This document shows positions 5,590 to 44,112 of a stretch of 64,000 bases of DNA, one piece after another. Numbering within the stretch: the first letter of the stretch is position 1; every line of letters begins with the position of its first letter. Made by a program: the position numbers and the translations under genes. The notes beneath the pieces were generated by a model. That model saw only the letters and a program-made list of their open reading frames with translations. It was not told where the DNA came from and searched no databases. The DNA comes from Carpediemonas membranifera BICM (Eukaryota > Protista > Fornicata): positions 62,001 through 126,000 of the forward strand of contig JAHDYR010000004.1 of NCBI GenBank assembly GCA_019828565.1, given 5' to 3'.

Positions 5590-6374
5590 TAGCGTATCCT
5601 TGATGGTATAAGCGATAACCTAATGGCGAAACGACCGCTCAAGCTCGATCAGCGATCAAAAGTGCGTAAACTGCACAATGACACGGCGTTTAAAGCAGAC
5701 AGAGCTGTGGTGAACTCTGAGTTTCGATCATTTACACCACCACAAGTCTCAACGCCACCACTAACTTCCATGTCTAACTCCGATTCGAGGTCTGGCCAGC
5801 GTTGGCTGAGTCGGCCGCCGCACCCAACCCAATACCCACTATCTGTGTTGTAGAGGCGCATAGGGGGAGGCGATTGACCGTCAAGAAGACGGCGAAGTAT
5901 GATGGGGTGCTTTTGTCTTCTGACAGTTGCTTCTGGCCGTTCGCGGGACCCTTACCTTATCCCATCACGTCCACCACCCTTCTTAAACATAGACTATGAC
6001 TAGTTGGGCACGCAGTTCATGAGTGTCCTTAAATGGCCCTGATTCTGGGTCTACCAGACTGGTGCAGTTTTGGACTAAACAGAACTAAACAATCAGTTTT
6101 AACAAAACAACGCGAGACTCACATACCCGCCAGATGATTGATTACGAACAGCACTGCACGAATGCTCATGCATTGCCTTTGAACTGCATCGTTTTAAGAA
6201 GGGCGGTTGCTGCCATTCCCTCTCCTGCCACTCCTGTGCCTTTTCCCGCCGTAGCCGCCACTGCAAGGACGGAGATCGAACCTGCCGAGCAGTCATTGAA
6301 GAGCCGCATCGCGAAGCAACGGTGCGTCCTCCCCGAGAATCTCACGCAGCAGCGAGTGCAGAGCAGTAGAGGAC

Positions 6375-9300: not shown

Positions 9301-9545
9301 TGGAGGACGCCGAGGAGGAGCTCGCCGAGTACCTGGCGGCCGTCCCCGAGCCTGACCCCCTCGCCATCCTCGTCGAGGCCCGGATCCGCGGGTCAGCCCC
9401 CCTCACGCGGTTCTTCTGCGAGACATTCCCGCAGCTGGCAGAGAGATTCGCGACGGCCGATGAGCGGTCAACCGACGACAACGAAGCCGAGCCTCAGCCG
9501 CAGCCGGAGTCAGAGGACGACCGCATCCAGCAGGCCTGGGAGTAG
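6375..9545 (+). CDS. Linker + two 7-blade WD40 cassettes + linker + helical region (N-terminal part of a WD40-AAA gene, ended by TAG)
   Basis: Two near-identical ~1107-bp units (MKGH at 6651 and 7758). The paralog at 29006 has CAG at the position of this TAG and continues into the AAA domains. Confidence 0.85.
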   Translation: MIRDATTRVFAPDSKLHLKPIGSSPLTATDLSRVLDHLSTLDGLPREFSMRLTEPDLTVTMRYGKLAADKPDSAIDDLLAAWHARMAECIQTMKGHTNWVLSVAFLPDGAMVTGSRDGTTKLWDKRGVCTTMEHGGKVRCIAVSPDGSTIASGGTDRKIKLWRRGRLVKTLEGHTDIVNSLAFSRDGKTLVSGSDDKTVRSWDVATGVCRTMEGHSHLVLSVAISPDGKTIVSGSRDKTIKVWDAESGRLEQTLEGHKNPVNAVAISPDGALLASGSGDNTIRLWDTRTWECVAVLMGHTHYVNSVAFSPDGRTLASGSGDNTTKFWSIGSGECFETLWGHDRDVNSVAFSPDGSTLLSGSDDKTAKQWSLGRSPELTALDQTLAQPVPAAAIVRLEGTVADLTRVLDHLSARPREFSMRLTEPDLTVTMRYGKLAADKPDSAIDDLLAAWHARMAECIHTMKGHTDDVTSVAFLPDGAMVTGSWDGTTKLWDKRGVCTTTMEHGGAVRCIAVSPDGSTIASGGTDRKIKLWDQTGRLVKTLKGHTRKVNSLAFSPDGKTLVSGSWDKTVRSWDVATGECRTMEGHSHLVLSVAISPDGKTIVSGSKDKTIKVWDAESGRLEQTLEGHTSYLATVAISPDGALLASGSGDNTIRLWDTRTWECVAVLMGHTHYVNSVAFSPDGRTLASGSWDNTTKLWSIGSGECFETLWGHDRELNSVAFSPDGSTLLSGSDDKTAKQWHIKHSPEIKEVCARPTLGADIRLPSDDSPLYLADLARVVIHILATGLPRSFEMRLAFPPATITLDKNRYFKTSADNSELTELIKSFNTHISQRMAEKILRELSAVVNTITADSAPESLRALVRRLDQYKSTANAAGDGPRSSAVRDPVLRRHLAVAAFAQDFLDLVDGGMSPKIAVTALKHSDGATPADYHDASELVQTAIDAFIAQPTSQHAERIPTSYTHAGLIRALAYTKEYMEDAEEELAEYLAAVPEPDPLAILVEARIRGSAPLTRFFCETFPQLAERFATADERSTDDNEAEPQPQPESEDDRIQQAWE

Positions 9546-9551
9546 TGCGGC

Positions 9552-12410
9552 ATGGCCAGCGCCGCGATGGACGAGCTGCTAGCGATGAGCGGCATGCGCG
9601 CGCTGAAGAGGGAGTGCGTCAACCTCGCTCAGCAGATCCGCGTCCGCAACGACCCGCGCACTGCGCAGCTCTACGCCGCCACGCCGATGCAGCTCAACTT
9701 CATCCTCAGCGGCAACCCTGGCACGGGCAAGAGCACGTGCGCTAAGCTGATCCACCGCTTCCTGGCCGACATCGGCGCTCGCGATGACACGTTCACCGAG
9801 CGCAACGGCGGCACCCTCGCCGACACGTCGCCGCTGGACATCACGAAGGAGTTGGACAGCCTCTTCCCGGCCGGCTTCAGGGGCACCGTCTTCATCGACG
9901 AGGCCTACCAGCTGAACCCCGCCCAGAAGAAGTCGGGCAAGTCAGTCATGGACCGCATCCTGGACGTGGCCGAGACGCGCCGCGGCGACGTCACGATCAT
10001 CCTGGCAGGCTACAAGGACGACATGAAGGACCTGCTGGCGACGAACCCGGGTCTGAACAGCCGCTTCTCGCGCCAGTTCGTGCTCGAGGACTTCGACAAG
10101 GACACGCTGCAGGAGATGTTCACCCAGCTGGCGACCAAGCAGGGCTGGTCCCTCGCCCCGGCAGTTGCCGAGATCGCTGGCCGTCGCCTCGAGCGCTTCA
10201 AGTCGCGCGACACCTTCGCCAACGGCCGCACCGTCCGCAACATGTTCAGCCAGGCCATCGAGGCTGCGGCCAAGCGCCTCATCTTGGGCGGCGAGCACAT
10301 GCTGCTGCCCGAGGACATCCTCGGACCAGCGCCATCGGCCGACTCGAACCCCGAGCTGCGCCGTCTCCTGGCCGAGCTGGACGGCTTGACCGGGCTTGGC
10401 GAGGTGAAGGAGGCTGTCCGGGGTCTGCTTCAGACAGCGAAGGTCAACTACGACAACGAGCTCCACCTCCGCCCGCTGCACGCCTTCGCACTCAACCGCC
10501 TCTTCTTCGGAAACCCTGGGACGGGCAAGACGACCGTCGCACGCCTGTACGGCCAGATCTTGAAGCACACGGGCCTGCTCAGCAGCGGCGAGGTCATCGA
10601 GAAGCGGCCCAGCGACCTGGTCGGCGACGCCGTGGGGCAGAGCCGGTCGAGAACGAAGGCCGCGATCGAGGAGGCGCGCGGCAAGGTGCTGCTCATCGAC
10701 GAGTGCTACTCCCTCGACGACGGCGTGTACGGCAAGGAGGCGCTTGACACGATCGTTGAGCGCGTGCACAACAAGCCCGGCGACGACATCGCGGTGCTCA
10801 TGCTCGGCTACGAGGAGCCCATCCGCCGCATGCTGCGCAACCAGAACGCGGGGCTGGCGAGCCGCTTCGACCCCGAGAGCGCGTTCATCTTTGCCGACTT
10901 CGACGACACCGCGCTCGAGGCCATCCTGAAGCACGCCATCGCCGAAAGCGGCCTCGCGTGCCGCAGAGCTGTCGTTGTCAACGCGATACAGCTGCTGGCC
11001 AAGGAGCGCGTCAAGCCCAACTTTGGCAACGCCCGCGCTGTGGTCAACCTCGTGAACAAGGCGAAGCGCCACATGATCCAGCGCGATCCAACCTCGCGAA
11101 AGATCGCAGTTGCTGATCTCACGCAGGCTGACGACGGCAAGGACCCGTTCGAGCCGCTCGACGGCCTGTACAAGGTCAACCACATCCGGCAGAGGTTCGA
11201 GGACCTCGTCCGTATCAAGCAGGGCATGGAGCGGAACGGCAAGTCAGCCGCCTCAATGCTGGTCCGCAACTACGTCTTCTCGGGCTCCCCGGGCACAGGC
11301 AAGACGACCATCGCGCGGTGCATGGCCAAGATCCTCTACCGCCTGGGTGTGCTGGCAACCGACACGTGCAAGGAGGTCGTCGCACGCGACATGATGGCAG
11401 GCTACGTGGGGCAGACGCCGGGCCGAGTCAAGGAGCTGATGGACGAGGCGGTCGGCGGCGTCTTCTTCGTGGACGAGGCTTACGGCCTTGGAGAGGGCAT
11501 GTTCGGCAAGGAGGCGATCGAGACGATGCTCAGCGAGATGACGTCGGACAAGCACAAGGGCAAGACCGTCGTCGTCCTGGCGGGCTACCGCGCCGATCTC
11601 GACCGCATGATGGACGTCAACGCCGGCGTCCGCTCGCGCTTCACCGAGCCGATCGACTTCCCCGACTGGTCGGCGGCCGACTGCACCAGCTTCATCGCGG
11701 GCAAGCTCGAGGGGGAGCACCTCAAGTTCGGCTCAAACGAGCAGGCCGCTCTGCGCAGCCACATCGAGGCCGTTGTTGGCCGGGCTTCCTGGGCCAACGC
11801 ACGAGACGCCAACACGATCTTCGAGGACCTGCTGCGCCAGCAGGCGATCCGCGCCGCTTCGGTCGTCGAGGCTGAACCTTCGATCGCGGCCGATGACGTC
11901 GACGCCGCCATGGCCAAGTGCAAGCGGAACCACCCTGAGAGCGCCAGCCTGCCGCATCTCGTCGAGGAGCAGCCAGTCGCCCTCGCCACCGACAGCGAGG
12001 TCCAGCCCAGACGCGAGACGCGGCAGGACGTCAGAGTTGAGCAAGTCGAGGAAGTCGACGAGACTGTCGATGTGGTGACTCGCGTTGAGCGCGACGAGGG
12101 CGTAACCGACGAGATCTGGGAGGAGCTGGAGCTGGCCAAGCGCGAGGAGCAGCGCCGTCGGGAGGAGGAGGAGCGGCGTCTGCGGGAGATCGAGGAACAA
12201 CTCAAGCGTGAGAAAGAGGAGAAGTCGCGCCGTGAGCTCGAGCGCCAGCAGCGGGAGGCCGAGGAGAGGCGCCGGAAGGAGGCGGCCATTCAGCAGAGAC
12301 TGAGGCAGATCGGGCGGTGCCCCGTTGGATTCGAGTGGATCAAGGTCGGCGGCGGGTACCGGTGTGCTGGCGGCAGCCACTTCGCGAGCGACGCCGAAGT
12401 GTTTGTCTGA
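9552..12410 (+). CDS. Triple CbxX/CfxQ/SpoVK-type AAA+ ATPase with E/R/K-rich coiled coil and C-terminal [22 protein letters not shown] motif
   Basis: Three Walker A motifs (GNPGTGKS, GNPGTGKT, GSPGTGKT), three Walker B motifs (FIDEAY, LIDECY, FVDEAY), NPGLxSRF-type Arg fingers and NGR/NAR sensor-2 motifs. Confidence 0.9.
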   Translation: MASAAMDELLAMSGMRALKRECVNLAQQIRVRNDPRTAQLYAATPMQLNFILSGNPGTGKSTCAKLIHRFLADIGARDDTFTERNGGTLADTSPLDITKELDSLFPAGFRGTVFIDEAYQLNPAQKKSGKSVMDRILDVAETRRGDVTIILAGYKDDMKDLLATNPGLNSRFSRQFVLEDFDKDTLQEMFTQLATKQGWSLAPAVAEIAGRRLERFKSRDTFANGRTVRNMFSQAIEAAAKRLILGGEHMLLPEDILGPAPSADSNPELRRLLAELDGLTGLGEVKEAVRGLLQTAKVNYDNELHLRPLHAFALNRLFFGNPGTGKTTVARLYGQILKHTGLLSSGEVIEKRPSDLVGDAVGQSRSRTKAAIEEARGKVLLIDECYSLDDGVYGKEALDTIVERVHNKPGDDIAVLMLGYEEPIRRMLRNQNAGLASRFDPESAFIFADFDDTALEAILKHAIAESGLACRRAVVVNAIQLLAKERVKPNFGNARAVVNLVNKAKRHMIQRDPTSRKIAVADLTQADDGKDPFEPLDGLYKVNHIRQRFEDLVRIKQGMERNGKSAASMLVRNYVFSGSPGTGKTTIARCMAKILYRLGVLATDTCKEVVARDMMAGYVGQTPGRVKELMDEAVGGVFFVDEAYGLGEGMFGKEAIETMLSEMTSDKHKGKTVVVLAGYRADLDRMMDVNAGVRSRFTEPIDFPDWSAADCTSFIAGKLEGEHLKFGSNEQAALRSHIEAVVGRASWANARDANTIFEDLLRQQAIRAASVVEAEPSIAADDVDAAMAKCKRNHPESASLPHLVEEQPVALATDSEVQPRRETRQDVRVEQVEEVDETVDVVTRVERDEGVTDEIWEELELAKREEQRRREEEERRLREIEEQLKREKEEKSRRELERQQREAEERRRKEAAIQQRLRQIGRCPVGFEWIKVGGGYRCAGGSHFASDAEVFV

Positions 12411-27400: not shown

Positions 27401-29965
27401 AGACTCTGGAGGGCCACACGAATTCTGTCTTCTCCGTCGCCATCTCCCCGGACGGCGCTCTGCTGGCCTCTGGGTCGTGGGACAGCACCATCAGACTCTG
27501 GGACACCAGGACCTGGGAGTGCGTCGCCGTCCTCAGGGGGCACACGCACTTTGTCTTCAGCGTCGCCTTCTCGCCCGACGGCAGGACCCTCGCCTCTGGG
27601 TCTGGTGACAACACCAAGCTCTGGAGCATCGCTAGCGGCGAGTGCTTCGCTACGCTCAGGGGTCATGCCGATAAGGTGTGGAGCGTCGCCTTCTCCCCAG
27701 ACGGGTCGACCCTGCTCTCTGGATCTGACGACAAAACCGCCAAGCAGTGGTCCCTTGGTCGCTCTCCCGAGCTCACCGCCCTCGACCAGACCCTCGCCGA
27801 GCCTGTCCCGGCCGCGGCCATCGTCCGCCTCGAGGGCACCGTCGCCGACCTCACCCGCGTCCTCGACCACCTCTCGGCGCGGCCCAGAGAGTTCAGCATG
27901 AGGCTGACTGAGCCCGACCTCACTGTCACGATGAGGTATGGCAAGCTGGCCGCCGACAAGCCCGACAGCGCCATCGACGATCTGCTCGCTGCCTGGAATG
28001 CGAGGATGGCTGAGTGCATCCACACGATGAAGGGTCACACCAACTGGGTGTTCAGCGTCGCCTTCCTCCCCTGACGGCGCCATGGTCACTGGGTCATGGG
28101 ATGGGACGACCAAGCTGTGGGACAAGCGCGGCGTGTGCAAGACGACGATGGAGCATGGCGGGTCTGTTCGGTGCATCGCCGTCTCCCCGGACGGGTCGAC
28201 CATCGCCTCGGGCGGTGATGACCACAAGATCAAGCTGTGGGACCAGACCGGCAGACTCGTCAAGACGCTCGAGGGGCACACCAATGATGTGAGAAGCGTC
28301 GCTTTCTCCCGAGACGGCAAGACGCTGGTGTCCGGATCCGATGACAAGACAGTCAGGACGTGGGACGTCGCCACCGGCGAGTGCAGGACGATGGAAGGGC
28401 ACTCCCATTTGGTGCTCTCCGTCGCCATCTCCCCTGACGGCAAGACCATCGTCTCTGGATCAAAGGACAAGACAATCAAGGTGTGGGTCGCTGAGTCGGG
28501 CAGACTCGAGCAGACTCTGGAGGGCCACACGAATTCTGTCTTCTCCGTCGCCATCTCCCCGGACGGCGCTCTGCTGGCCTCTGGGTCTGGCGACAACACC
28601 ATCAGACTCTGGGACACCAGGACCTGGGAGTGCGTCGCCGTCCTCAGGGGGCACGCGAGTTCTAGCAGTGTCGCCTTCTCGCCCGACGGCAGGACCCTCG
28701 CCTCTGGGTCTGGTGACAACACCAAGCTCTGGAGCATCGCTAGCGGCGAGTGCTTCGAGACGCTCAGGGGCCATGACGATTGGGTCCGCTGCGTCGCCTT
28801 CTCCCCGGACGGGTCGACCCTGCTCTCTGGATCTGACGACAAAACCGCCAAGTAGTGGTCCCTTGGTCGCTCTCCCGAGCTCACCGCCCTCGACCAGACC
28901 CTCGCCGAGCCTGTCCCGGCCGCGGCCATCGTCCGCCTCGAGGGCACCGTCGCCGACCTCACCCGCGTCCTCGACCACCTCTCGGCGCGGCCCCGAGAGT
29001 TCAGCATGAGGCTGACTGAGCCCGACCTCACTGTCACGATGAGGTATGGCAAGCTGGCCGCCGACAAGCCCGACAGCGCCGTCGACGCCATGCTCGCTGC
29101 CTGGCATGCGAGGATGGCTGAGTGCATCCACACGATGAAGGGTCACACCGATGACGTGACCAGCGTAGCCTTCCTCCCTGACGGCGCCATGGTCACTGGG
29201 TCATGGGATGGGACGACCAAGCTGTGGGACAAGCGCGGCGTGTGCACGACGATGGAGCATGGCGGGTCTGTTCGGTGCATCGCCGTCTCCCCGGACGGGT
29301 CGACCATCGCCTCGGGCGGTGATGACCGCAAGATCAAGCTGTGGAGGCGCGGCAGACTCGTCAAGACGCTCGAGGGGCACACCAGGGATGTGAGAAGCGT
29401 CGCCTTCTCCCCAGACGGCAAGACGCTGGTGTCCGGATCCGATGACAAGACAGTCAGGTCGTGGGACGTCGCCACCGGCGTGTGCAGGACGATGGAAGGG
29501 CACTCAGATTTGGTGCTCTCCGTCGCCATCTCCCCTGACGGCAAGACCATCGTCTCTGGATCAAAGGACAAGACAATCAAGGTGTGGGACGCTGAGTCGG
29601 GCAGACTCGAGCAGACTCTGGAGGGCCACACGAGTTATCTCGCCACAGTCGCCATCTCCCCGGACGGCGCTCTGCTGGCCTCTGGGTCGTGGGACAGCAC
29701 CATCAGACTCTGGGACACCAGGACCTGGGAGTGCGTCGCCGTCCTCAGGGGGCACACGCACTTTGTCTTCAGCGTCGCCTTCTCGCCCGACGGCAGGACC
29801 CTCGCCTCTGGGTCTGGTGACAACACCATCAAGTTCTGGAGCATCGACAGCGGCGAGTGCTTCAAAACGCTCAGAGGTCACACAGATTGGGCGAACAGTG
29901 TCGTCTTCTCTCCAGACGGGTCGACCCTGCTCTCTGGGTCAAAGGACAACACCGCCAAGCAGTGG
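24427..29965 (+). repeat. Tandem array of five ~1.1-kb WD40-propeller + linker cassettes
   Basis: MKGH starts at 24704, 25817, 26917, 28027 and 29135. Frame is broken by homopolymer indels, a 10-bp deletion near 26290 and a TAG at 28853-28855. Confidence 0.9.
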
Positions 29966-32900
29966 CCCTCCATCAAGTCGCCAGAGATCGAGGAGGTCTG
30001 CGCCCAACCCACACTCGGCGCCGACATCCGCCTGCCGTCCGACGACTCGCCCCTCTACCTCGCCGACCTGGCGCGGGTCGTCATCCACATCCTCGCCACG
30101 GGCCTGCCCCGCTCCTTCAAGATGAGGCTGGCCTTCCCTCCCGCGACAATCACGTTGGACAAGAACAGGTATTTCAAGACGAGCGCCGATAATTCTGAGC
30201 TGACAGAGCTGATCAAATCTTTCAACACCCACATATCTCAGCGTATGGCCGAGAAGATCCTCCGCGAGCTTTCAGCTGTCGTGAATACGATCACCGCCGA
30301 CTCGGCTCCGGAGTCCCTGCGCGCCTTAGTGCGTCGTCTCGACCAATACAAGAGCACCGCGAATGCAGCTGGGGATGGGCCCCGTTCGTCTGCCGTGCGT
30401 GACCCTGTTCTGCGGAGGCACCTCGCCGTGGCCGCGTTTGCCCAAGACTTCCTTGACCTCGTCGACGGGGGCATGAGCCCAAAGATCGCTGTCACCGCTC
30501 TGAAACACTCCGACGGTGCCACACCCGCCGACTATCACGACGCTTCGGAGCTCGTGCAGACCGCCATCGACGCGTTCATCGCCCAGCCGACGTCCCAGCA
30601 CGCCGAGCGTATTCCCACGAGCTACACCCACGCCGGCCTGATTCGCGCGCTGGCGTACACGAAGGAGTACATGGAGGACGCCGAGGAGGAGCTCGCCGAG
30701 TACCTGGCGGCCGTCCCCGAGCCTGACCCCCTCGCCATCCTCGTCGAGGCCCGGATCCGCGGGTCAGCCCCCCTCACGCGGTTCTTCTGCGAGACATTCC
30801 CGCAGCTGGCAGAGAGATTCGCGACGGCCGATGAGCGGTCAACCGACGACAACGAAGCCGAGCCTCAGCCGCAGCCGGAGTCAGAGGACGACCGCATCCA
30901 GCAGGCCTGGGAGCAGTACGGCATGGCCAGCGCCGCGATGGACGAGCTGCTAGCGATGAGCGGCATGCGCGCGCTGAAGAGGGAGTGCATCGACATCGCT
31001 CAGCAGATCCGCGTCCGCAACGACCCGCGCACTGCGCAGCTCTACGCCGCCACGCCGATGCAGCTCAACTTCATCCTCAGCGGCAACCCTGGCACGGGCA
31101 AGAGCACGTGCGCTAAGCTGATCCACCGCTTCCTGGCGGACATCGGCGCTCGCGATGACACGTTCACCGAGCGCAACGGCGGCACCCTCGCCGACACGTC
31201 GCCGCTGGACATCACGAAGGAGTTGGACAGCCTCTTCCCGGCCGGCTTCAGGGGCACCGTCTTCATCGACGAGGCCTACCAGCTGAACCCCGCCCAGAAG
31301 AAGTCGGGCAAGTCAGTCATGGACCGCATCCTGGACGTGGCCGAGACGCGCCGCGGCGACGTCACGATCATCCTGGCAGGCTACAAGGACGACATGAAGG
31401 ACCTGCTGGCGACGAACCCGGGTCTGAACAGCCGCTTCTCGCGCCAGTTCGTGCTCGAGGACTTCGACAAGGACACGCTGCAGGAGATGTTCACCCAGCT
31501 GGCGACCAAGCAGGGCTGGTCCCTCGCCCCGGCAGTTGCCGAGATCGCTGGCCGTCGCCTCGAGCGCTTCAAGTCGCGCGACACCTTCGCCAACGGCCGC
31601 ACCGTCCGCAACATGTTCAGCCAGGCCATCGAGGCTGCGGCCAAGCGCCTCATCTTGGGCGGCGAGCACATGCTGCTGCCCGAGGACATCCTCGGACCAG
31701 CGCCATCGGCCGACTCGAACCCCGAGCTGCGCCGTCTCCTGGCCGAGCTGGACGGCTTGACCGGGCTTGGCGAGGTGAAGGAGGCTGTCCGGGGTCTGCT
31801 TCAGACAGCGAAGGTCAACTACGACAACGAGCTCCACCTCCGCCCGCTGCACGCCTTCGCACTCAACCGCCTCTTCTTCGGAAACCCTGGGACGGGCAAG
31901 ACGACCGTCGCACGCCTGTACGGCCAGATCTTGAAGCACACGGGCCTGCTCAGCAGCGGCGAGGTCATCGAGAAGCGGCCCAGCGACCTGGTCGGCGACG
32001 CCGTGGGGCAGAGCCGGTCGAGAACGAAGGCCGCGATCGAGGAGGCGCGCGGCAAGGTGCTGCTCATCGACGAGTGCTACTCCCTCGACGACGGCGTGTA
32101 CGGCAAGGAGGCGCTTGACACGATCGTTGAGCGCGTGCACAACAAGCCCGGCGACGACATCGCGGTGCTCATGCTCGGCTACGAGGAGCCCATCCGCCGC
32201 ATGCTGCGCAACCAGAACGCGGGGCTGGCGAGCCGCTTCGACCCCGAGAGCGCGTTCATCTTTGCCGACTTCGACGACACCGCGCTCGAGGCCATCCTGA
32301 AGCACGCCATCGCCGAAAGCGGCCTCGCGTGCCGCAGAGCTGTCGTTGTCAACGCGATACAGCTGCTGGCCAAGGAGCGCGTCAAGCCCAACTTTGGCAA
32401 CGCCCGCGCTGTGGTCAACCTCGTGAACAAGGCGAAGCGCCACATGATCCAGCGCGATCCAACCTCGCGAAAGATCGCAGTTGCTGATCTCACGCAGGCT
32501 GACGACGGCAAGGACCCGTTCGAGCCGCTCGACGGCCTGTACAAGGTCAACCACATCCGGCAGAGGCTCGAGGACCTCGTCCGTATCAAGCAGGGCATGG
32601 AGCGGAACGGCAAGTCAGCCGCCTCAATGCTGGTCCGCAACTACGTCTTCTCGGGCTCCCCGGGCACAGGCAAGACGACCATCGCGCGGTGCATGGCCAA
32701 GATCCTCTACCGCCTGGGTGTGCTGGCAACCGACACGTGCAAGGAGGTCGTCGCACGCGACATGATGGCAGGCTACGTGGGGCAGACGCCGGGCCGAGTC
32801 AAGGAGCTGATGGACGAGGCGGTCGGCGGCGTCTTCTTCGTGGACGAGGCTTACGGCCTTGGAGAGGGCATGTTCGGCAAGGAGGCGATCGAGACGATGC

Positions 32901-33630
32901 TCAGCGAGATGACGTCGGACAAGCACAAGGGCAAGACCGTCGTCGTCCTGGCGGGCTACCGCGCCGATCTCGACCGCATGATGGACGTCAACGCCGGCGT
33001 CCGCTCGCGCTTCACCGAGCCGATCGACTTCCCCGACTGGTCGGCGGCCGACTGCACCAGCTTCATCGCGGGCAAGCTCGAGGGGGAGCACCTCAAGTTC
33101 GGCTCAAACGAGCAGGCCGCTCTGCGCAGCCACATCGAGGCCGTTGTTGGCCGGGCTTCCTGGGCCAACGCACGAGACGCCAACACGATCTTCGAGGACC
33201 TGCTACGCCAGCAGGCGATCCGCGCCGCTTCGGTCGTCGAGGCTGAACCTTCGATCGCGGCCGATGACGTCGACGCCGCCATGGTCAAGTGCAAGCGGAA
33301 CCACCCTGAGAGCGCCAGCCTGCCGCATCTCGTCGAGGAGCAGCCAGTCGCCCTCGCCACCGACAGCGAGGTCCAGCCCAGACGCGAGACGCGGCAGGAC
33401 GTCAGAGTTGAGCAAGTCGAGGAAGTCGACGAGACTGTCGATGTGGTGACTCGCGTTGAGCGCGACGAGGGCGTAACCGACGAGATCTGGGAGGAGCTGG
33501 AGCTGGCCAAGCGCGAGGAGCAGCGCCGTCGGGAGGAGGAGGAGCGGCGTCTGCGAGAGATCGAGGAACAACTCAAGCGTGAGAAAGAGGAGAAGGCGCG
33601 CCGCGAGCTCGAGCGCCGGAAACGGGAGGC
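29006..33630 (+). pseudogene. WD40-linker-triple AAA fusion gene (copy 2), interrupted in its coiled coil by an LTR retrotransposon
   Basis: One continuous frame from WD40 through three AAA domains; nearly identical to ~8620-12250; host sequence resumes at 43845. Confidence 0.88.
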
Positions 33631-33687
33631 TGAGAGCCAGTGCAGTTTATGTAAACAGATCTACCTGCGCAAGCCAACAATGGCACA
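33631..33687 (+). repeat. 5' LTR of outer element (57 bp)
   Basis: tgagagccag...caatggcaca, identical to 43784-43840. Confidence 0.95.
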
Positions 33688-33856
33688 ATATCGATATTCT
33701 GCTTCTACAGAATCACACAGTGGTCTATCCGTGATAGACGTCTCTTCCCTCACAACGGGGTACGAGATCTGGTTACGGGAAGTCGGTAACGTCAAAAGAC
33801 CCCGTTCTTTCCCCCCACGCATTCACGGCAAAGACCCTCGAGCTTCTACAAGCCAC

Positions 33857-34367
33857 ATGGCGGCCCACCTCCACGTTCCCGACCTTCGAGTCGTTCTGGG
33901 ACTCCCTTATCCCTGACGTGGTCTCGCAGGCACAACACGCCAAGCAAGAACCTGACAGACACGCCACGTCGTGCCGCGCAAGATACCGCGCGATCATCGA
34001 CGCTCTGCAGGACGATCTCTTCTTGCTCTGTGCTGCAGCCGCCAACACCTATAAGGACAGCCCGCTTCTCGACCCGGCGATGCGCCGGATGCAGGCTGTT
34101 TACGACCGCGCCGAGGCCGAGCTGAACGATAAGCTCGCCAGCCTCTGCACGGCCAGCCACGACCGCCACGAGGCGGACCCGGATGCGACCCTCACCTTCG
34201 CGACGCTAACGAACCCCCTGGACGACAAACCGGCCCGATCGGCCGCGGATGTCGCGAGAATCGTCAACTCTCTCCCGTCAGCGGCAACGGCCGCCCCCTC
34301 CGCCCCCGTGTCCGTGCGTGACCAGCTTCGCGCCGAGGCCAGGACCATCCTGCCTCACCTGTACCTT
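33857..34367 (+). CDS. gag: Outer element gag-like ORF, 5' part; resumes at 40317 after the nested insertion
   Basis: ATG 33857 with a probable 1-nt indel near 33911. The frame ...PHLYL joins TLMPTLDR (40317) in frame across the CCTT TSD. Confidence 0.6.
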
Positions 34368-34489
34368 TGTGGTTCAATGGGTGTTGAACTTTTACTGAGG
34401 AGAAGACTCGACACAAGGGTGTCGAGGAGAAACTCCTTGACTATTAAATATAACGTAAATCTGTGTAACTTTGGGTAGGACCCACAACA
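34368..34489 (-). repeat. 3' LTR of inner element (122 bp)
   Basis: Identical to 40191-40312; contains hairpins ctcgacac-aagg-gtgtcgag and aggag-aaa-ctcct. Confidence 0.95.
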
Positions 34490-35353
34490 CTGCCCCTCCA
34501 TGCCTGGTATAGGCATGACAGAGAGACTTGACGTCAGCATTTCACCAAAGGCCTGGACGGTGCCACCCGACCGCCAACGGTGACTCATAGGGCTGGCAAC
34601 CCCATGGCCTGAGTGCTTTCGCATCTAGCTGAACGAAATCAAAATGATGGTATCATGATCTAACTGCGGTACCGCTATGTGAGCTCTGTTTCAAAAATGG
34701 TGAAACGTGACGGAAAGGCTTACCACTGCCCCTCCACGGCCTTCCTAGGCCGTCTTCACAAACCTTATACGTGTTATATGCCATTCCATGTAATTCGAAG
34801 GCCAAGAACGATTGCTCTAGCAAACACTGCCAATGCTGAGCCCTTATCGCTCATAATCACACAGACGCCGAAAAACGTACTTAGAAGCTCCAATTCGGCT
34901 CCGTTGAGGAGTTCTGAGGCTTCTAATTTTCTGCGTCCAACTGTACTTGAATAACAACATCAAACTGACCGGAAGGAGCACTAGGAAGCTCCTAATGCCT
35001 TATTACCGACAATAAATGCATGCTTGAAGACTAAGATGACCTTGTTAGTTGTTCCTTCGACCGTTTCCGAGAAATGTGCAGGATATGTCGCCGTCAACTC
35101 ATTTGATGTCGGACAACACAGCCGTAGAGGCCGTTCTGAAGGAAATTCGTGCCAAAAATCACCGAACTTGGTGATGACGATCTGGCTAGGCCACTTATTG
35201 TTGCCCATACGTCCGTTTGTCGTTCCCTTCGCGCTCAGAAGTATCGTGGACGCAAGCGCATGGTCACCGACAATCTGTAAGTAACAAACATCAACCGTGA
35301 GGTTATATAGTCACCGCGTGCAAGCCTCAGAACGCATCACTCGCACCCTGACG

Positions 35354-36190
35354 ATGACGACTCTGATGCCCCACGACATCAAGGCCGAGGTTGCCCGACG
35401 CCTGGAAGGTTACACCAACTCCATCGAGCTGCCGCTCCAGCGAATCTTTGACGCTATTGAGCAAGGTCGTCTGAACGACGCAGCCGTAGTGCAGGACGTG
35501 AAGCTGACCCAGCAGGTCTTGGCTCTCGTGGCTCATTGCCAGGTCGCGCTTGCCGGTGTGAGGGCCCACCTCAAGCTCGGCAGGAAGCGCTTGTCCGATG
35601 GCGACATCGTGTCGGCCGCGATCCGGGGCCGCGACATCACGCTGGGTGGATCTTCACCCGGTAATGGTCACTACTCTGCAGCTCTCGTGGCGGCTGTGCG
35701 GACTGCCGGCGGGGTCAAGTCGGACACTACAGCGCGCGGATATCTTAACCGCCTGTTGGTCCTCGTCCTCGCACCGGACTACTTCCGTGTCGCTGTCTAC
35801 GGCATCAGCCGGCGCATCCCGGCTCCCAACGACTTCTGGGCAACCCTGGTCAGCCGCTTGTGCCACGACGGCTACCTGCCCGCCATTGGCGATGAGGCTC
35901 ACTGGGAGCCGCTTCAGGTCTCTGATCCGGACCGCTACTACACTGTCACGTGCGTAGTCCGTCACGAGTATCTGAAGACGACTTGTGGTCCCGGGTCTTT
36001 TGTGTTGATCCTGCAGTATGACGGATACTCGGGACTCAGCATCGTGTCCCTCAACGCTGATCTCTGCCTTGTCCGGTGTGTGCGAGAGTACTTGGCTGAG
36101 AACGCCCTTGAGCGCCACGCTGACCCGACTTGGTTGGTCGAGCTGACGGACACGGAGGAGACGGAAGACGAGGAATCTAGCTCTGAATAA
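35354..36190 (+). CDS. Antisense accessory ORF of the inner element (278 aa), chromodomain-like C-terminus plus acidic tail
   Basis: Intact ORF between pol and the 3' LTR, converging on the pol stop with a 42-bp gap; pattern YYTVTCVVRH...LILQYDGY...VREYL. Confidence 0.7.
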   Translation: MTTLMPHDIKAEVARRLEGYTNSIELPLQRIFDAIEQGRLNDAAVVQDVKLTQQVLALVAHCQVALAGVRAHLKLGRKRLSDGDIVSAAIRGRDITLGGSSPGNGHYSAALVAAVRTAGGVKSDTTARGYLNRLLVLVLAPDYFRVAVYGISRRIPAPNDFWATLVSRLCHDGYLPAIGDEAHWEPLQVSDPDRYYTVTCVVRHEYLKTTCGPGSFVLILQYDGYSGLSIVSLNADLCLVRCVREYLAENALERHADPTWLVELTDTEETEDEESSSE

Positions 36191-36232
36191 ATCGTTTGTT
36201 CCTCGAGGATACAGCTTCGATGTTGAGAAGTT

Positions 36233-39200
36233 TTACAGACCGTCACGCTTGGCTTGGTCAGACTTCAAATATGTATCGAGGGCTTCCAAATCTTTGACGT
36301 GCGAATAAGGTTCGAATGAAGCCTCTGAATCCTCGAATCCGACCCAGTGTACGAGGTACTCGCGCCTTGACTTGGGGCCCGAGCCTCTAGAGCGTGAGAT
36401 GCGCTCGACATGCCACTCATCGACGGAAGCGGCTGCGAGGTCATAGATCTGTTGCTCCGAGAGCTTGCCTGGGTCAAATCTTCGCACACGTGCCGCGTCT
36501 ACCTTGATAGTTGGACCGTCCGCTGACTGACTGAGGTCTTGTACCTCATATGCGACGACAACACCATCACGTTTGACGGCTGCGACACGCCTCATGGGGC
36601 CGCGCCAGCCCGGGGCTAGCTTGCTCGGTGGTCTTGGGTAGTATTTGACCAGCACGAAACGGCTCAATATCTCGCTTCTCGATGAGGTTGCCTTTGCGAG
36701 AGCGTCTTCGCGCATGGCTCTAATCCTTGCTTTGGCGAGTTGGATGGCGGCATCGGCTGCGGCTAGCTTCGACTGTGGCGGACCAGCCGAGGCGGCATCC
36801 GTGATATAGATCGATGACGGTATTGATAAATTGGCGCCAAACATGATCTCGGCCGGAGTCAACCGGGTCGGGATCCTGGGCATTGAGTTGACCAAGAATT
36901 GGGCGACTGGTAGGTGTGCTACCCAATCGTTATTCCTTAACTCCAGCTTCCTGGCTCTGAGGATGCGTTCGACCTCCTTGTTCGCGCGTTCGACGACACC
37001 GTTGCTCTGGGGATGGTATGCTGTCGTTATGTGGACGTCGAACCCCATCTCTTCGGAGAGGCGTTTGAACAGAGCGTTTTTGAACTCTGAGCCCCCATCC
37101 GATTGGACGACTTCGGGGCATCCGTATCGTAGAATCCAGGTGTTGACCAATGCGTTGGCTGCGTCTTTGGCTGAGGTGCTGTTGACCGGGACTAGCTCTG
37201 TCCAGCGGGAGCACATGTCGATCATTACTGTCACGTAGGACAGGCCGTTGACCGTCGGTAGCGGACCCATGGTGTCAATGGCCACACGCCGGAACGGGAG
37301 GTCTACAGCTGTATGCAGGCCGTCGGGTGTATCAACAGGAGGGCGGGCCAAGACTTGGCACTCTGGACACGCGGTAATCACGTCGTCTACGACTTGACGG
37401 GAGACAGACAAACCGTCGGCCCTAAGTTGCTCGGTTGTCATCCGGCGAGACAGATGAGCTCCTGCTGTGAGATGAGCGCGGGATACCTGATCCCTCGACG
37501 CCTGTTGCATGGAGAATACTCTCGAGAGACCGTCGGCTCCACCGTTGTCCAGACCGGCGATGTGCTGTAGGGTGAAATCTAAATCGGCGATCGAATCAGC
37601 CCACCGGCGGACCTTGGCGTTGGTGGACCGGTACATATAGAGTAGGTTCCGGTGATCCGTGAGAATAGTAAAGCTCTCCCAGCACAGGAACTTGCGCCAT
37701 CGTTGTAACGCTGCCACGATAGCGTAGGCTTCTTTCTCACCGGTACACCAGCGTGACTGGACGTCGTTGAACGCACGCGACATATAGCAAACTGGTCGGC
37801 CCTCTTGGAGTAAGACTGCTCCGTACCCGACATCGGATGCGTCAGTCATGACGGTGTGAGGCTTAGTCGCGTCGAACATGGCTAGAGCGTCGGCCGAACA
37901 TAAAGCTTGTTTCAGATCGTCCAGCGACTTCTGAAGAACGTCTCGAGGGGGTCTGCCGACCGGACATGGCGTCTAGCAGAGGCTTAGCTCGGACCGCGAA
38001 GTTGGGTATGTAATCGCGGAAATAGTTGAGGAATCCGTTGAGACCCTGCATGCCCTTCGTGGATGAAGACAGCTTGAGGTTCGCGATATCTTCGGTCCGC
38101 TGGGGTGAGATCTTCACGCTGCCTTGGGATATGATCCACCCGAGGAACTCGACCTCTTGCCGACCGAACTGGCACTTATCTCGGCCGAGCTGAAGGTTAA
38201 GCTTGTCAACGCGTTGCATGACTTTTTCGAGGTTTCCCAGGTACTCGTCCTCATCCGCACCCATGACGATGATGTCATCAATGTATATGACACAGGCGGA
38301 GCCCACCAGACCCTTGAACCCGTCTTCCATCGCCCTCTGGAAGTACGCTCCGGCGTTACGTAAGCCGAAGGGCATCCGTGTATATTGGTATTGACCAAAA
38401 ACAGTACGGAAGGCGGTTAGGTGACGGCACCGTTCAGTAAGAGGGATCTGATGGTATCCTGCTGACAAGTCTAGGGTAGCGAACACAGACTTTCCGGACA
38501 GTTGAGTGAGAACTTCGTCTATGCGAGGGATGGGGTAGTCGAATGGTTCCGTTAGTTGATTGATCTCGCGGAAGTCGACGACAAAACGCGTCTTTCCCCC
38601 CTTCTTTGGAACTATGATGGTAGGGCTCGCGTATTGAGACTGGCATGCCTCGATGTAGCGCTTTGCCAGGAGCGTATTAATGTGCTCTTGAATGATCGGG
38701 ACTTTCGGCGGGGGAACATAGTACGGCCGAATGTGTACGACTCTGTCGCCCTTGAGGACCAAATCATACGGTTCGAGCCGGCTTGGCTCGGTACGGTCCA
38801 CGAATGTCCGGGCGTAACGCTTGAGGATGTCGGCCTGCCTCTGAGAAAAGGAAGAGGACATGGCTCTGGCTTGCGCGACGTACTTCTCGAATGTAGGTGG
38901 TTCGTCGCTGGCTGCGAGCTCGCTGGTAGGCTCAGACAACGAAGGGAGAAGGCCGATCTCCACCATCTGAGGGTAACCCAGGCATACATCGAAAGCGGTC
39001 GACAGGACGTAGGCCTTAATAGTGATAGAGCATCCGCGCGGAGTGAATGGCGAGGGCGCTAAGACGAGGCGGAAGGATACCTGACCCTCGGCCTCTCTGA
39101 CGCCGCCCACTGTCTCGATAAGTGTCTTCTCGTGTGAGATCCACTTCACTGCCTTGCCGTAGCAGAGCTTGGGGTCAATGGTTGCGCAGTCAGCGCCCGA

Positions 39201-40169
39201 GTCGAACAGGACGGACACGACTTGCTTAAGAATGCTAGCCTTGACGGTGGGAAGGACACTCTGACGGGAACCGAGAGAAAACACACAACGAGCTGAATTT
39301 ACCTCAGAACGGCAGAATTCAGCTCGGTGGCCCGGCTTCTGGCACTTGGAACAGGTTGTCTTCGGAGCAGGGCATCGGCGAGCGGAGTGACCGACCTTAC
39401 CGCAGTTGAAGCACACGAATGGCTTCTTCTCGTGCTTGGGCTTGTCGATCGGCTTGCCTTTTGAGGGGGCTACGTTCGTGCGGTCAGGCTCGCGTCGATG
39501 AGGGTTCTTCGGACCGCTCCCCGTGTGCCGTGTATGGGAGGGCGTGGTGTTGGTACGCTGTGAGTCGGAGACCCCCGCAGCGCCGAAGGAAGCGATCATC
39601 TCCTTGGACTCCTTGAGGTCGCGTGACATGACGAGGACATCAGCCATTGCGTCCTTGAGATCCTTGCGCTCCGTTGATTCTCTGACTCGATACATGATGC
39701 GACTGTTGTTGGGGAACTTGAAGCAGCGGCTGTACGTCTCCTTCAAGACGTCCTCGGGATCTTCGGGTTGAACGAGCTTCAAGAGCAGATTGAATCGGCG
39801 GTTCACTCGAGCAACCTCATCAGGCTCGAAGGACTTGGCGGGGACTCGGAAGAGCTGTAGACGCATGCTCGGGCGAGAAGGTCGAAGGGCAGCACCGAGG
39901 CGCTTGAGGACTCGTTCATCTTGGGCTGCGACACGACGTTTCTTACGGAGCTTCGCGGAGAGCAGGAGAGGAGTGTCTTCAACCTCTTCGTCGTCGTTAA
40001 GGCCTGCTAGCTCTGCTATGCTAGGCTCGATGAGGTCAATAACATCATCGCGGCCGCCTAAGGCGCGATGATCGTGGAGGTTATCCGCAAAGTCCAAAAG
40101 AGCGTCCATGGAGGACTTCTTCAGGAGAGGCGGATTCTTCTTCAGGCTTCTGTAAGTTTCCGTACCCAT
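36233..40169 (-). CDS. gag-pol: Inner element Gag-Pol (2 CCHC knuckles, protease, RT, RNase H, integrase, chromodomain); one +1 indel at 37947-37951
   Basis: CFNCGKVGHSARRC, CSKCQKPGHRAEFC, LFDSGA, YIDD, TDASD, TDHRNL, H..H..CPEC, IDTMG/SDGG/VVER, EWHVERI..YLVHWVGF. Removing one C gives TPRDVLQKSLDDLKQAL in frame. Confidence 0.93.
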
Positions 40170-40190
40170 ATGTTTTGGTAGTACTAGTAC

Positions 40191-40312
40191 TGTGGTTCAA
40201 TGGGTGTTGAACTTTTACTGAGGAGAAGACTCGACACAAGGGTGTCGAGGAGAAACTCCTTGACTATTAAATATAACGTAAATCTGTGTAACTTTGGGTA
40301 GGACCCACAACA
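40191..40312 (-). repeat. 5' LTR of inner element (122 bp)
   Basis: Ends 21 bp before the gag ATG (40169). Confidence 0.95.
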
Positions 40313-40316
40313 CCTT

Positions 40317-43300
40317 ACCCTGATGCCAACACTCGACCGCGGTGCACGCCTCAAGGCCATCACAAGCAAGGGCACCCAACTGTACGGCCAGAACGCGGCC
40401 CACCGCCTTAACACTCTGCGCCTGCAGAAGGCGTGCGACGGGTACAACCCCGTCGTCGAGGCCGATGGCTACCATAAGATCCCCGACAGCGCCCTCCGCG
40501 CTGCGGTCCGGTCTGTCGCCCTCAAGGGATACGACGACGACGCGATCCCGCTATACGAGGCGCTGATCGAGCGGGATTCGGACGGCAACTGGCGTCCCGC
40601 CCGCGACTGCATAGACGCCCTCTCGACCCTCGAGACCGACCATCTCGGCCAGATCGTCGTCCCCAATGGCGCGAGTCGGACCTCCGCCTGTTCGCCGCGG
40701 ACGACCGCGTTATCTCCGTGGGCAAGATCGCCACCATGTCCATCACACTCCCTGGCATGGATGGCAAAACCGTCACGCTCGACTGGGACGTCCACATGAT
40801 CACAGGCACCAGCGACAGGATGCTGATCGGCAAGGACCTCCTCAGGCACATCGGCTACGTCCTCAACGACCGCCTACTGATACTCCCGTCCGAGAAGCCG
40901 GATGATAAGGACGATCTAGAAGAGCACAACATGATCGACGCCGACGTCTTCGAAGCGGCGTCAACCTCGGACTCGAAGCATTCGCTCGCCGTCACGATCC
41001 CGGACGACCACGGCACCGAGTTCGCCAACAAGGTCCGAAGCATCGTCGAGGAGTTCGATGAGGTGTTCGACCCGGCTCTCCCGCCCGAAGGCAGCAAACT
41101 ACAGCCTCACAAGATCGAACTCACACGCGATTTTCACCTCAAGTGCCGTCCTCGACAGCTTGTCGGAGAGGCTGGCTCAGCCGCCCTCTCCGAGATCGAG
41201 AAGATGAAGAAGCTCGGCATCATACGAGACAGCCAGTCCGAGCACGCCAGCCGCCACACGATGGCAACCAAGAAGAACGGCGAACCCCGCTTCTGCGTCG
41301 CATTCAACGATCTTAACGACGCCACGAAGGACGACGCCTTTCCCCTCCCCGATCTGAGGGACCTGCCCCACGAAGCCGGCGGATGCTCTTACTTTGCATC
41401 ACTCGATCTCCGGTCCGGATACTGGCAGCAGCTGATGGAGCCGGCCAGCATCCCCCTTACCTCGTTCGTAGTCCCCGGGCACCAATTCGAGTTCCTCAGG
41501 GTCCCGTTTGGACTTAAGAACGCCCCCTCCAAGTTTCAACGAGCGATGGAGGCCGTGCTAGATGGCATCCCCGGCCACCGGGTCTACGTGGATGACATAT
41601 TCCTCTACGCACGGACCGAAGAAGGATTCCTCAACACCCTGAGACTCACCCTCCAGAGAGCCAAGGACAACCGCCTGCGCCTCCGTGCGGACAAATGTAC
41701 CATCGGCGCCGCCGAAGTGGAGGTCTGCGGATTCATCATCAACAGCTCCGGCCGCTCGGTGAGCCCAGGCCGCGTCGCCGCGCTGAAGGAGCTGCCCGCC
41801 CCCACCACCGTCACAGAGCTCAGACGCACGATGGGCAAGTTTAACCACCTCGCAAACTACCTCCCGCAACTCAGCTCAGCCACAGCCCCCCTCAACGCCC
41901 TCCTCAAGGGGTCACCCAAGAAGCTAGACAAGCTCCCTTGGACTGAGGAACACGACAAGGCATTCGCGGCTCTGGAAGGAGCTGTGCACCGACAACAAGG
42001 CATTGGCACTACCCAACCTGACCTGCAAGTGGACACTTGAGACAGACGCGTCCACAATCGCAGCCGGCGGAGTGCTGTGGCAACACGAGGGCGACACGAA
42101 GAAACCCCTCGCGTACTTCTCAAAGACGTTCACAGAGACCCAACGCCGCTGGGCGACGGTCGAGCAAGAGCTCTACGCAGTCATATACTGCATCACCCGG
42201 CCAGAGTTTAGCCAGATTCTCAAGCTGAAGCCATTCACCGTACTCACAGATCACAAGAACATCGTGTGGATGATTCGCAAGGCTGAGGAAGGGACGCGCA
42301 AGCTCACGCGATGGAGACTCATCCTATCCGAGTACCCCTTCGACATCATGCATATCGCAGGGACAAATAACGTCGTCGCGGACGCCCTCTCCCGCCCCAG
42401 CGGCGCGGCGATCAGCGAAATCGCCAGCAGCACCCACCGCTTCGACATTCAGCAGGCCCACGCTGGAGCCAACGGCCATGCTTCGATCAAACAAACGATC
42501 GCCCATCTCAAGGAAGCCGGCAAGACCTGGTCTTCCATGAACTCAGACGTCGCGGAGCACGTCGCGACTTGCCCAGTCTGCCAGAAGCTCAAATCCCACC
42601 CCATCGCCAAGGCCCAGTGGCATACGACCCAGAAGACCCGCCCATTCGAGGCGGTGCAGATAGACACGCTCGGCCCGCTTCCAAAGACGAATGGCCTCGC
42701 TCACGTGATCGTGTTCATCGACGTCTTCAGCAAGTTCACTGTGCTCAAGCCGGTTGCGTCAACCTCGGCAGAAGAAGCCGCCGACGCGATGCTCCAGGTG
42801 TGGTCGCTCTTCGGCGCACCCAGCCTGATCCAGACAGACCAGGGAAGTCAGTTCAAGAACTCAACCATCGCCGCTCTCAACAAGAAGATCAGCCTGAACC
42901 ACAGGTTCTCCACGGCGTACCACCCACAGAGTAACGGCGTTGTCGAGAGAGTCAATGGGACCATCATGCGCAGACTGCGCGCCCTGCTACTAGACTCAGA
43001 AACGACCGACTGGCCCGCACTTATCCCAATCGTGCAACACATTATCAACACTTCGACACACTCGACTACCGGCTTCACGCCGTTCGAGCTGCTTTTTCGG
43101 ACACACGTCCGCGCTCACGGCCCTCCCGGAGTCACGCATCATCAGCGCCGCCAAGGCGACGCAAGACACACCTACCATCCAGGCCATTAACGCATTCCAC
43201 ACCGACATACAGGCCATGCACGACGCAGCCCGCGCGAAGATCGCCGCATACGAGCGTCACAAGGCCGCACAAACCCAACCGGCGGACAACTTCGACTGGA

Positions 43301-43755
43301 AACTCGAACGCCTAGTGCTCCTGAGATATCCTCACAAGGCCCCATCCAAGATTCTGCCTCCAGTCCGCGGCCCGCTACAACTCCTCAGGGAAGGGAAGAG
43401 CCCCAACACATTCGTCCTCCGTGACCTCGTCACCAAGTCCGAGCTGCTCGTCCACCAGGACCGCCTCATTCGCTTCGACCCAGGCACAGCAGACCTCAAG
43501 ACACTCGAGCGCATCGCCGCATACGAACAAGACGAACAACAAGTCTCCGCCATCGTCGGCCACCGCGAGCGCAACCGACGCCTCGAGCTCCTCGTCCACT
43601 GGGAAGGCCTAGAAGACTCCGAGGACTCGTACATTCCGTATAACGCATATTACGACCGCCTCGCCGCCCTGGATGACTACCTACGCCTCAACCCAGGTCT
43701 CACGCCCCTCTTCGCACGTTACAAGCGGAAGTTCCGGGGCAATGGCCGCCGTTAG
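40317..43755 (+). CDS. pol: Outer element gag 3' part and pol (protease-like, RT, RNase H, integrase, chromodomain) in four frameshifted pieces
   Basis: MLIGKDLL, LDLRSGYWQ, PFGLKNAP, YVDD, TDAS, TDHKNI, H..H..CPVC, IDTLG/TDQG/VVER, RGP, LLVHWEGLEDSEDSY. Confidence 0.9.
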
Positions 43756-43783
43756 CTGGCTAGCTTCGCCTTGAGGAGGGAAG

Positions 43784-43840
43784 TGAGAGCCAGTGCAGTT
43801 TATGTAAACAGATCTACCTGCGCAAGCCAACAATGGCACA
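43784..43840 (+). repeat. 3' LTR of outer element (57 bp)
   Basis: Identical to 33631-33687, preceded by PPT and followed by TSD. Confidence 0.95.
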
Positions 43841-43844
43841 AGGC

Positions 43845-44112
43845 TGAGGAGAGGCGCCGGAAAGAAGAGGAGGCTCGTCGTCTGCGGGAGATCGAGGAAC
43901 AACTCAAGCGTGAGAAAGAGGAGAAGTCGCGCCGTGAGCTCGAGCGCCAGCAGCGGGAGGCCGAGGAGAGGCGCCGGAAGGAGGCGGCCATTCAGCAGAG
44001 ACTGAGGCAGATCGGGCGGTGCCCCGTTGGATTCGAGTGGATCAAGGTCGGCGGCGGGTACCGGTGTGCTGGCGGCAGCCACTTCGCGAGCGACGCCGAA
44101 GTGTTTGTCTGA
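43845..44112 (+). pseudogene. Detached C-terminus (coiled coil + CPVGFEW..CAGGSH) of the WD40-AAA gene copy 2
   Basis: Matches the 3' end of 9552-12410 plus extra coiled-coil sequence. Confidence 0.88.

Follow-up and report, generated by a model that had tools for sequence, protein, structure and literature searches.

Among described systems, the nearest layout is that of the fungal GalEa elements, Copia retrotransposons without a primer-binding site (PBS), in which a 9-bp sequence is palindromic together with the final A of the LTR (Donnart et al. 2017, PMC5445492). The resulting palindrome, A-CTGATCAG-T, lies directly after the 5' LTR and is named the Conserved Hairpin Site. In the accessible part of that paper the site is suggested to act as the PBS; the authors state that no model fits, and cite the retroviral dimer site as a comparison. 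A downstream complementary sequence, CHSeq2, is usual, with five families marked as being without it. The same text contains no dimer-priming model.

Other described modes of priming are summarized here as they appear in the accessible parts of the cited papers. A survey of plant LTR retroelements distinguishes three primer types, namely a whole tRNA, a half tRNA and a self-primer in cis, with a complement of at least 10 nt as the rule for the self-primer (PMC6317226). Half-tRNA priming from the anticodon arm occurs in Copia lineages (PMC6317226, PMC10886601). Tf1, Tf2, Tj1, sushi and Tcn1 are tRNA-independent, with their own sense RNA as primer and a site of ~11 nt beside the LTR (PMC7175516, PMC4600332, PMC6317226). 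In Tf1, RNase H cuts the RNA duplex between bases 11 and 12, which frees an 11-nt self-primer (PMC7175516). A novel mode of priming has been proposed for Cryptococcus Tcn2-5, according to a review (PMC7175516), and a new kind of self-priming has been suggested for the dictyostelid Skipper chromoviruses (PMC5006619).

Two nested elements and their LTR edges

The window (the whole 64-kb stretch of DNA that was analysed) contains two nested LTR retrotransposons. Self-comparison of the window delimits the outer one, a Ty3/Gypsy element, to 33631-43840, with identical 57-bp LTRs and a 4-bp target duplication. The inner element is nested within it in the opposite orientation (34368-40312) and has identical 122-bp LTRs. 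The target duplications of both elements are 4 bp long (33627-33630 and 34364-34367). The features of the locus are:

28856..44112, plus strand: host WD40 + AAA-ATPase gene (Pfam), split by the nested elements
33627..33630 (left) and 43841-43844 (right), plus strand: outer target-site duplication AGGC, from the sequence and comparison with an uninterrupted paralogue
33631..33687, plus strand: outer 5' LTR, 57 bp, TG...CA, identical to 43784-43840
33673..33684, plus strand: small predicted hairpin GCCA/TGGC at the 3' end of the outer LTR (predicted fold)
33680..34367, plus strand: first part of the outer gag (tblastn of protein P0241, 98-100%), with a small frameshift near 33800
33687..33698, no strand assigned: outer palindrome AATATCGATATT, a perfect 12-mer that begins with the final A of the 5' LTR
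33696..33713, plus strand: hairpin of 6 bp that takes in the palindrome's last 3 nt (predicted fold)
34364-34367 and 40313-40316: inner target duplication CCTT
34368..34499, minus strand: inner 3' LTR (34368-34489) and the abutting purine-rich tract (34490-34499)
35285..36190, plus strand: additional antisense ORF (301 aa) within the inner element (ORF list; no Pfam match)
36233..40170, minus strand: inner gag-pol (zinc knuckle, RT, RNase H, integrase, chromodomain), with one frameshift near 37960
40180..40191, no strand assigned: inner palindrome AGTACTAGTACT, a 12-mer at the primer-site position of the inner element
40191..40312, minus strand: inner 5' LTR, 122 bp, TG...CA, identical to 34368-34489
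40317..43755, plus strand: remainder of the outer gag, and pol (RT, RNase H, integrase, weak chromodomain; Pfam, comparison with P0241 and ORFs), with frameshifts
43773..43783, plus strand: outer polypurine tract GAGGAGGGAAG, abutting the outer 3' LTR
43784..43840, plus strand: outer 3' LTR, identical to the 5' copy

The first-pass annotation of this DNA had described a 12-mer palindrome starting on the last A of the outer 5' LTR, and had claimed the same geometry with a different sequence for the inner element. Both descriptions are confirmed. The outer palindrome occupies 33687-33698 beside an LTR that is fixed by its identical copies, and the inner site reads A-GTACTAGTAC-T on the minus strand (40191-40180), in the same register. 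The annotation had further held that no such case was described; this does not stand, since in the GalEa elements a palindrome that includes the LTR's last A already takes the place of a PBS, as the available text of Donnart et al. 2017 (PMC5445492) describes.

The window contains 12 palindromes of at least 12 bases, so that a 12-mer alone is ordinary and only its position matters. The chance that a 12-mer palindrome starts exactly on the last A of the LTR is ~2e-4 per element, given the local composition. The predicted RNA duplex of the outer palindrome, which forms no hairpin by itself, amounts to -10.9 kcal/mol, and that of the inner palindrome to -16.0 kcal/mol. A short-read contig (runs X1/X2) spans the inner palindrome without differences and none spans the outer one, although this support is not independent, as the two runs may be the source data. 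Loose contig ends at window positions 33986, 34482, 40661 and 41883-41923 (organism A, X1/X2 contigs) point to further related retrotransposon families, and the proteins P0123 and P0279 represent another named C. membranifera retrotransposon family.

The outer copy in the window is defective, with an insertion, a deletion and frameshifts. By comparison with the protein P0241, it is without ~141 codons at 40664, the protease active site among them. P0241 is named Carpediemonas membranifera J8273_8473 and matches the outer RT at 100% identity over 310 residues, by which the host is identified as this species. P0241 continues across the inner insertion point and has the 141 residues, protease site included, that are absent from the window, and it therefore most likely derives, to judge from this comparison, from a second, uninterrupted copy of the outer element. 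The domain order, PR-RT-RH-IN, is that of Ty3/Gypsy (Pfam), with the protease present in P0241 and deleted in the window's outer copy. The inner and outer elements are 29% identical in RT and 38% in RNase H-integrase. Within the inner element, one contig (runs X1/X2) skips 35277-35310 (34 nt, GT..AG), a stretch resembling a short intron at the 5' end of the antisense ORF.

An uninterrupted paralogue of the interrupted host gene lies at ~6300-12410 in the window and is 98% identical. The window as a whole (1-64000) is a tandem array of long WD40 + AAA-ATPase genes, whose repeat units are almost identical apart from a few clustered variable codons. The array resembles a diversifying receptor family.

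Related elements and the symmetry of the site

In RT trees, the outer and inner elements lie on one side of a branch together with environmental proteins, Aduncisulcus paluster proteins and proteins with an ANDGO gene id. This clade is one side of an unrooted branch, obtained from quick searches, with SH-aLRT values of 94-97 and weaker values in FastTree, and its monophyly is not proven. By this placement both elements fall in a deep protist, chromodomain-bearing Ty3/Gypsy group, which branches apart from rows resembling plant and fungal chromoviruses in trees that have neither a named reference set nor a root. For one of the trees and the controls, 67 of 215 loci were dropped beforehand; by judgement, not by a test of their own, these were taken for pararetrovirus-like genomes or, in one case, a short fragment. 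The metagenome search covered 2 of 64 parts, which leaves the clade much undersampled. A plasmid search returned 3 distant records, and the inner protein as a single query found no match among viral contigs. Eukaryotic Gypsy contigs (L029-L071) turn up in many prokaryotic genome bins, a case of binning contamination.

The chromodomain (Pfam) is above the cut-off in the inner element (E 1.5e-7) and in loci L001 and L137, and below it in the outer element (E 6.5e-5) and L136; at E 0.01 none was detected in L204, L174, L063 or L227. The RNase H motif (~42140 and ~37745 in the window) has W in most of the group, as opposed to Y in other Ty3/Gypsy elements, six residues before its last glutamate, a position that we take to be near the part discriminating RNA from DNA strands. 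As a marker of the palindrome this residue was rejected: W is present in 7/8 palindrome elements and in L227, but L204 has Y and 15 of 122 motif-bearing outside proteins have W. A scan with the motif gave 2 matches, both unrelated.

The group contains nine DNA loci, two of which (L063 and L227) were placed by later trees; L037 and L060 are without a 5' end, and L223 was set aside as a degenerate fragment. In each of the seven relatives whose 5' end is readable, a perfect palindrome starts on an A between the LTR start and gag. These palindromes are five 12-mers, one 10-mer (L174) and one 20-mer (L063):

L001: A-ATATTAATAT-T
L136: A-GTGACGTCAC-T
L137: A-ATGAATTCAT-T
L204: A-AATATATATT-T
L227: A-GTTATATAAC-T
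L174: A-TTCGCGAA-T, the 10-mer

At L174:1-86 and 5303-6100, two diverged elements apparently stand head to tail with one common LTR and a 10-mer palindrome in each.

With the window pair included, a perfect palindrome starts on an A at the LTR end in 9/9 clade elements with a readable 5' end, evidence that is partly circular, since the LTR end is fixed by two copies in three of them (outer, inner and L204) and in the other six was inferred from the polypurine tract or an upstream repeat edge, from CA or TA, and from the palindrome itself. L227 was found after the pattern had been fixed, and conforms to it. When the stretch before gag was shuffled, an anchored palindrome appeared in 21 to 284 of 2000 shuffles per element (eight elements tested). 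A blind rule recovered the palindrome in 5/6 clade loci and in 5/89 outside loci; L136 was missed owing to a wrong gag start. Among 25 outside elements with two LTR copies, several of them near-copies and a few with imprecise ends, none has a junction palindrome and 22 have TGG. A palindrome upstream of gag in the outside locus L026 was put down to chance, as an ordinary TGG site is present there.

The letters of the site vary widely across the clade and the symmetry does not. As MAFFT put the sites out of register, pairs were counted on LTR-anchored rows. All 57 pairs over the palindromes of the nine elements are Watson-Crick, with no G-T pair. The seven 12-mers give 42/42 pairs at this centre, against at most 20/42 at any of 27 other centres, and have on average 4.1 of 10 letters in common. 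Among six 12-mers, both members of the pair vary at five of the six positions, and the outer A-T pair alone is fixed. The earlier supposition that symmetry rather than sequence is conserved is thus borne out in 9/9 clade elements with a readable 5' end, with palindromes in 7/7 relatives and compensatory changes at 5/6 pair positions. On these sequence comparisons, the palindrome is a real, clade-wide feature whose conserved property is its symmetry, not its letters.

Strict Watson-Crick symmetry without G-T pairs is also what a double-stranded DNA site would be expected to have, and the palindrome could be a promoter element or the binding site of a dimeric protein encoded by the element, all the more as LTRs down to 57 bp leave little room for a promoter. 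We consider such a role improbable: the letters differ even between the two elements of one host (4 of 10 in common), and priming would be left unexplained.

The form of the site bears on how it might pair as RNA. Seven different central tetramers occur among the nine elements and all are symmetric, a pattern more in keeping with an intermolecular duplex than with a hairpin, whose loop needs no symmetry. Predicted duplexes range from -6.8 to -19.3 kcal/mol, the AT-rich palindromes being the weak ones (-6.8 kcal/mol). In predicted co-folds of 130-nt RNAs the palindrome forms an intermolecular helix in only 4/8 elements. Priming from a hairpin in cis has been weighed against this, either by one RNA that, cut or terminating past the site, would fold onto itself, or by a GalEa-like hairpin with a downstream complement. 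Hairpins can form in L136 (-1.8 kcal/mol) and L063 (-4.0 kcal/mol), local hairpins flank the outer site, and a downstream partner sequence is described for most fungal GalEa families in the available text (PMC5445492). Against it, no stable hairpin forms in 7/9 sites and the would-be loop is symmetric in 9/9. A downstream 9-mer complement like CHSeq2 (8 of 9) is absent from the eight elements tested, in which the best matches reach just 5-7 of 9 at scattered distances. Predicted folds did not reveal a flanking hairpin common to the relatives. A hairpin in cis accordingly has little probability in our estimate.

Known priming modes at the nine sites

No TGG occurs within -2..+12 of the LTR end at any of the nine elements. 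Within the LTR, Watson-Crick complements of the site reach at most 3 nt in the outer and 4 nt in the inner element, and the longest measure 3-7 nt over all nine, which falls short of the 10-nt rule for self-priming of the Tf1/sushi type. The initial 7 nt of the site recur nowhere else in the outer or inner element or in their 300-nt upstream flanks. As judged from these searches, priming by a tRNA 3' end and Tf1-type priming do not fit the sites, in agreement with the first-pass annotation, which had reported no TGG-type PBS and no complement within the LTR. The clade appears to fit none of the three surveyed primer types.

The primer might also be a host tRNA fragment or another small host RNA, the symmetry being incidental, and the half-tRNA priming of Copia lineages gives a precedent. 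The window holds no tRNA genes; four tRNAs in the relatives' loci, none of them the host's, match the site over 5 nt at best. An anticodon arm is an inverted repeat around a 7-nt loop, and its geometry does not give a gapless palindrome. Moreover, the nine different sequences would each require a self-complementary host RNA end, and the sites have no TGG. We regard a host RNA primer as very improbable.

The comparison with described systems leaves several partial likenesses, stated here within the accessible text of the papers cited. As in GalEa (PMC5445492), the protist elements have no PBS and a palindrome that includes the last A of the LTR, and L174 has the same 10-mer geometry. Unlike GalEa, which is Ty1/Copia, they are Ty3/Gypsy elements with the integrase after RT-RH. 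The GalEa sequence is nearly fixed, in two main variants, whereas the protist sites covary freely; the GalEa palindrome is a 10-mer and those of the protist clade are mostly 12-mers; and CHSeq2, usual in GalEa, was not found in the eight protist elements tested. With the Tf1 group the protist elements would have in common tRNA independence, the element's own sense RNA as primer and an RNase H cut in an RNA duplex; a site of ~11 nt beside the LTR is a further likeness. In Tf1, however, a non-palindromic site pairs in cis with a separate complementary segment at the 5' end of the transcript, and the protist elements are without such a complement. Skipper elements (PMC5006619) are likewise chromodomain-bearing Ty3/Gypsy elements of protists that have neither a tRNA PBS nor a complement in the LTR, but a polypyrimidine tract follows their LTR, not a palindrome. 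The available text of Kojima 2024 (PMC10886601) does not mention palindromes. The literature searched, which omits most subscription papers, yielded neither a Ty3/Gypsy palindrome case nor a dimer-priming proposal.

The palindrome also resembles the retroviral dimer initiation site and the Ty1 PAL sequence, short self-complementary sequences near the 5' end, the known ones of which pair genomic RNAs (PMC5445492, PMC3681743). It may accordingly be a dimer-initiation or packaging signal only, the primer being something else (a protein, a de novo start or an unseen RNA). Palindromic dimer motifs are reported, in the parts of the papers available, for Ty1 RNA (PMC3681743) and the Ty3 tRNA primer (PMC5371799), and central symmetry suits any duplex. 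The retroviral and Ty1 sites are, however, additional to a tRNA PBS and are not fixed to the LTR edge, and the Ty3 motif too is additional to a PBS. No other PBS is seen in the protist elements, and their palindromes start on the last base of the LTR in 9/9 cases, a register that dimerization alone does not require. A role in dimerization or packaging without priming therefore appears rather unlikely.

A candidate route of priming in trans

A gapless palindrome fixed to the LTR edge is most simply accounted for if the sense copy of the site is itself the primer. We give an even chance to the reading that the palindrome is the PBS of a tRNA-independent Ty3/Gypsy lineage, probably self-priming in trans, in which the cleavage and priming steps are those that we infer below.

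The identical palindromes of two element RNAs would anneal, and one RNA would be cut to become the primer for its partner. Either a full genomic RNA or a short sense transcript that stops at the site could serve as the donor. Gag would chaperone the antiparallel duplex in the particle, and the RNase H of the element may cut this donor at the 3' edge of the duplex or directly beside it, by analogy with the cut in the RNA duplex of Tf1 (PMC7175516, available text). The new 3'-OH would then face the base that directly follows the LTR, or, by way of the invariant A-T pair, lie one base inside the LTR, and would be extended to copy the U5-R of the partner. Plus-strand DNA would in turn copy the primer into the reverse complement of the site, so that the second strand transfer would pair perfectly only with a palindrome. 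An asymmetric variant would give a mirrored heteroduplex, the repair of which could restore symmetry or fix a double change; such repair would explain the fast turnover of the sequence together with its strict Watson-Crick symmetry and the lack of G-T pairs.

Two properties of the sites constrain this scheme. Since the palindromes are 10, 12 and 20 nt long, the cut would have to be set by the edge of the duplex and not by a fixed distance. The main difficulty of the model is a double cut: in a symmetric duplex both RNAs could be cut, with loss of the overlap for the second transfer, and the model therefore needs a one-sided cut or a spare RNA.

More broadly, the clade may represent a fourth way of priming LTR elements, in which the PBS is its own primer, with independent origins in protist Ty3/Gypsy and fungal Copia elements and a copying cycle that maintains the symmetry as the letters drift; we see this proposal as evenly balanced between holding and failing. 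What is new here is a GalEa-like layout in the other superfamily, with a covariation that the fungal case mostly lacks and that makes the unexplained site of GalEa sharply testable. If the proposal is true, dimerization and priming would coincide in a single step, the element would not depend on host tRNA, and annotation tools that rely on a PBS would miss a class of intact elements.

The gag reading frame can cross the palindrome, as in the outer element (33680-33698), where P0241 starts at the ATG at 33680 inside the LTR, its frame continues through the palindrome and its first residues match the translation there. In L137 the three bases directly past the LTR form the long ORF's first ATG (L137:110). 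The outer LTR, at merely 57 bp, and the inferred LTR of L063, at ~68 bp, are very short for elements with full coding capacity.
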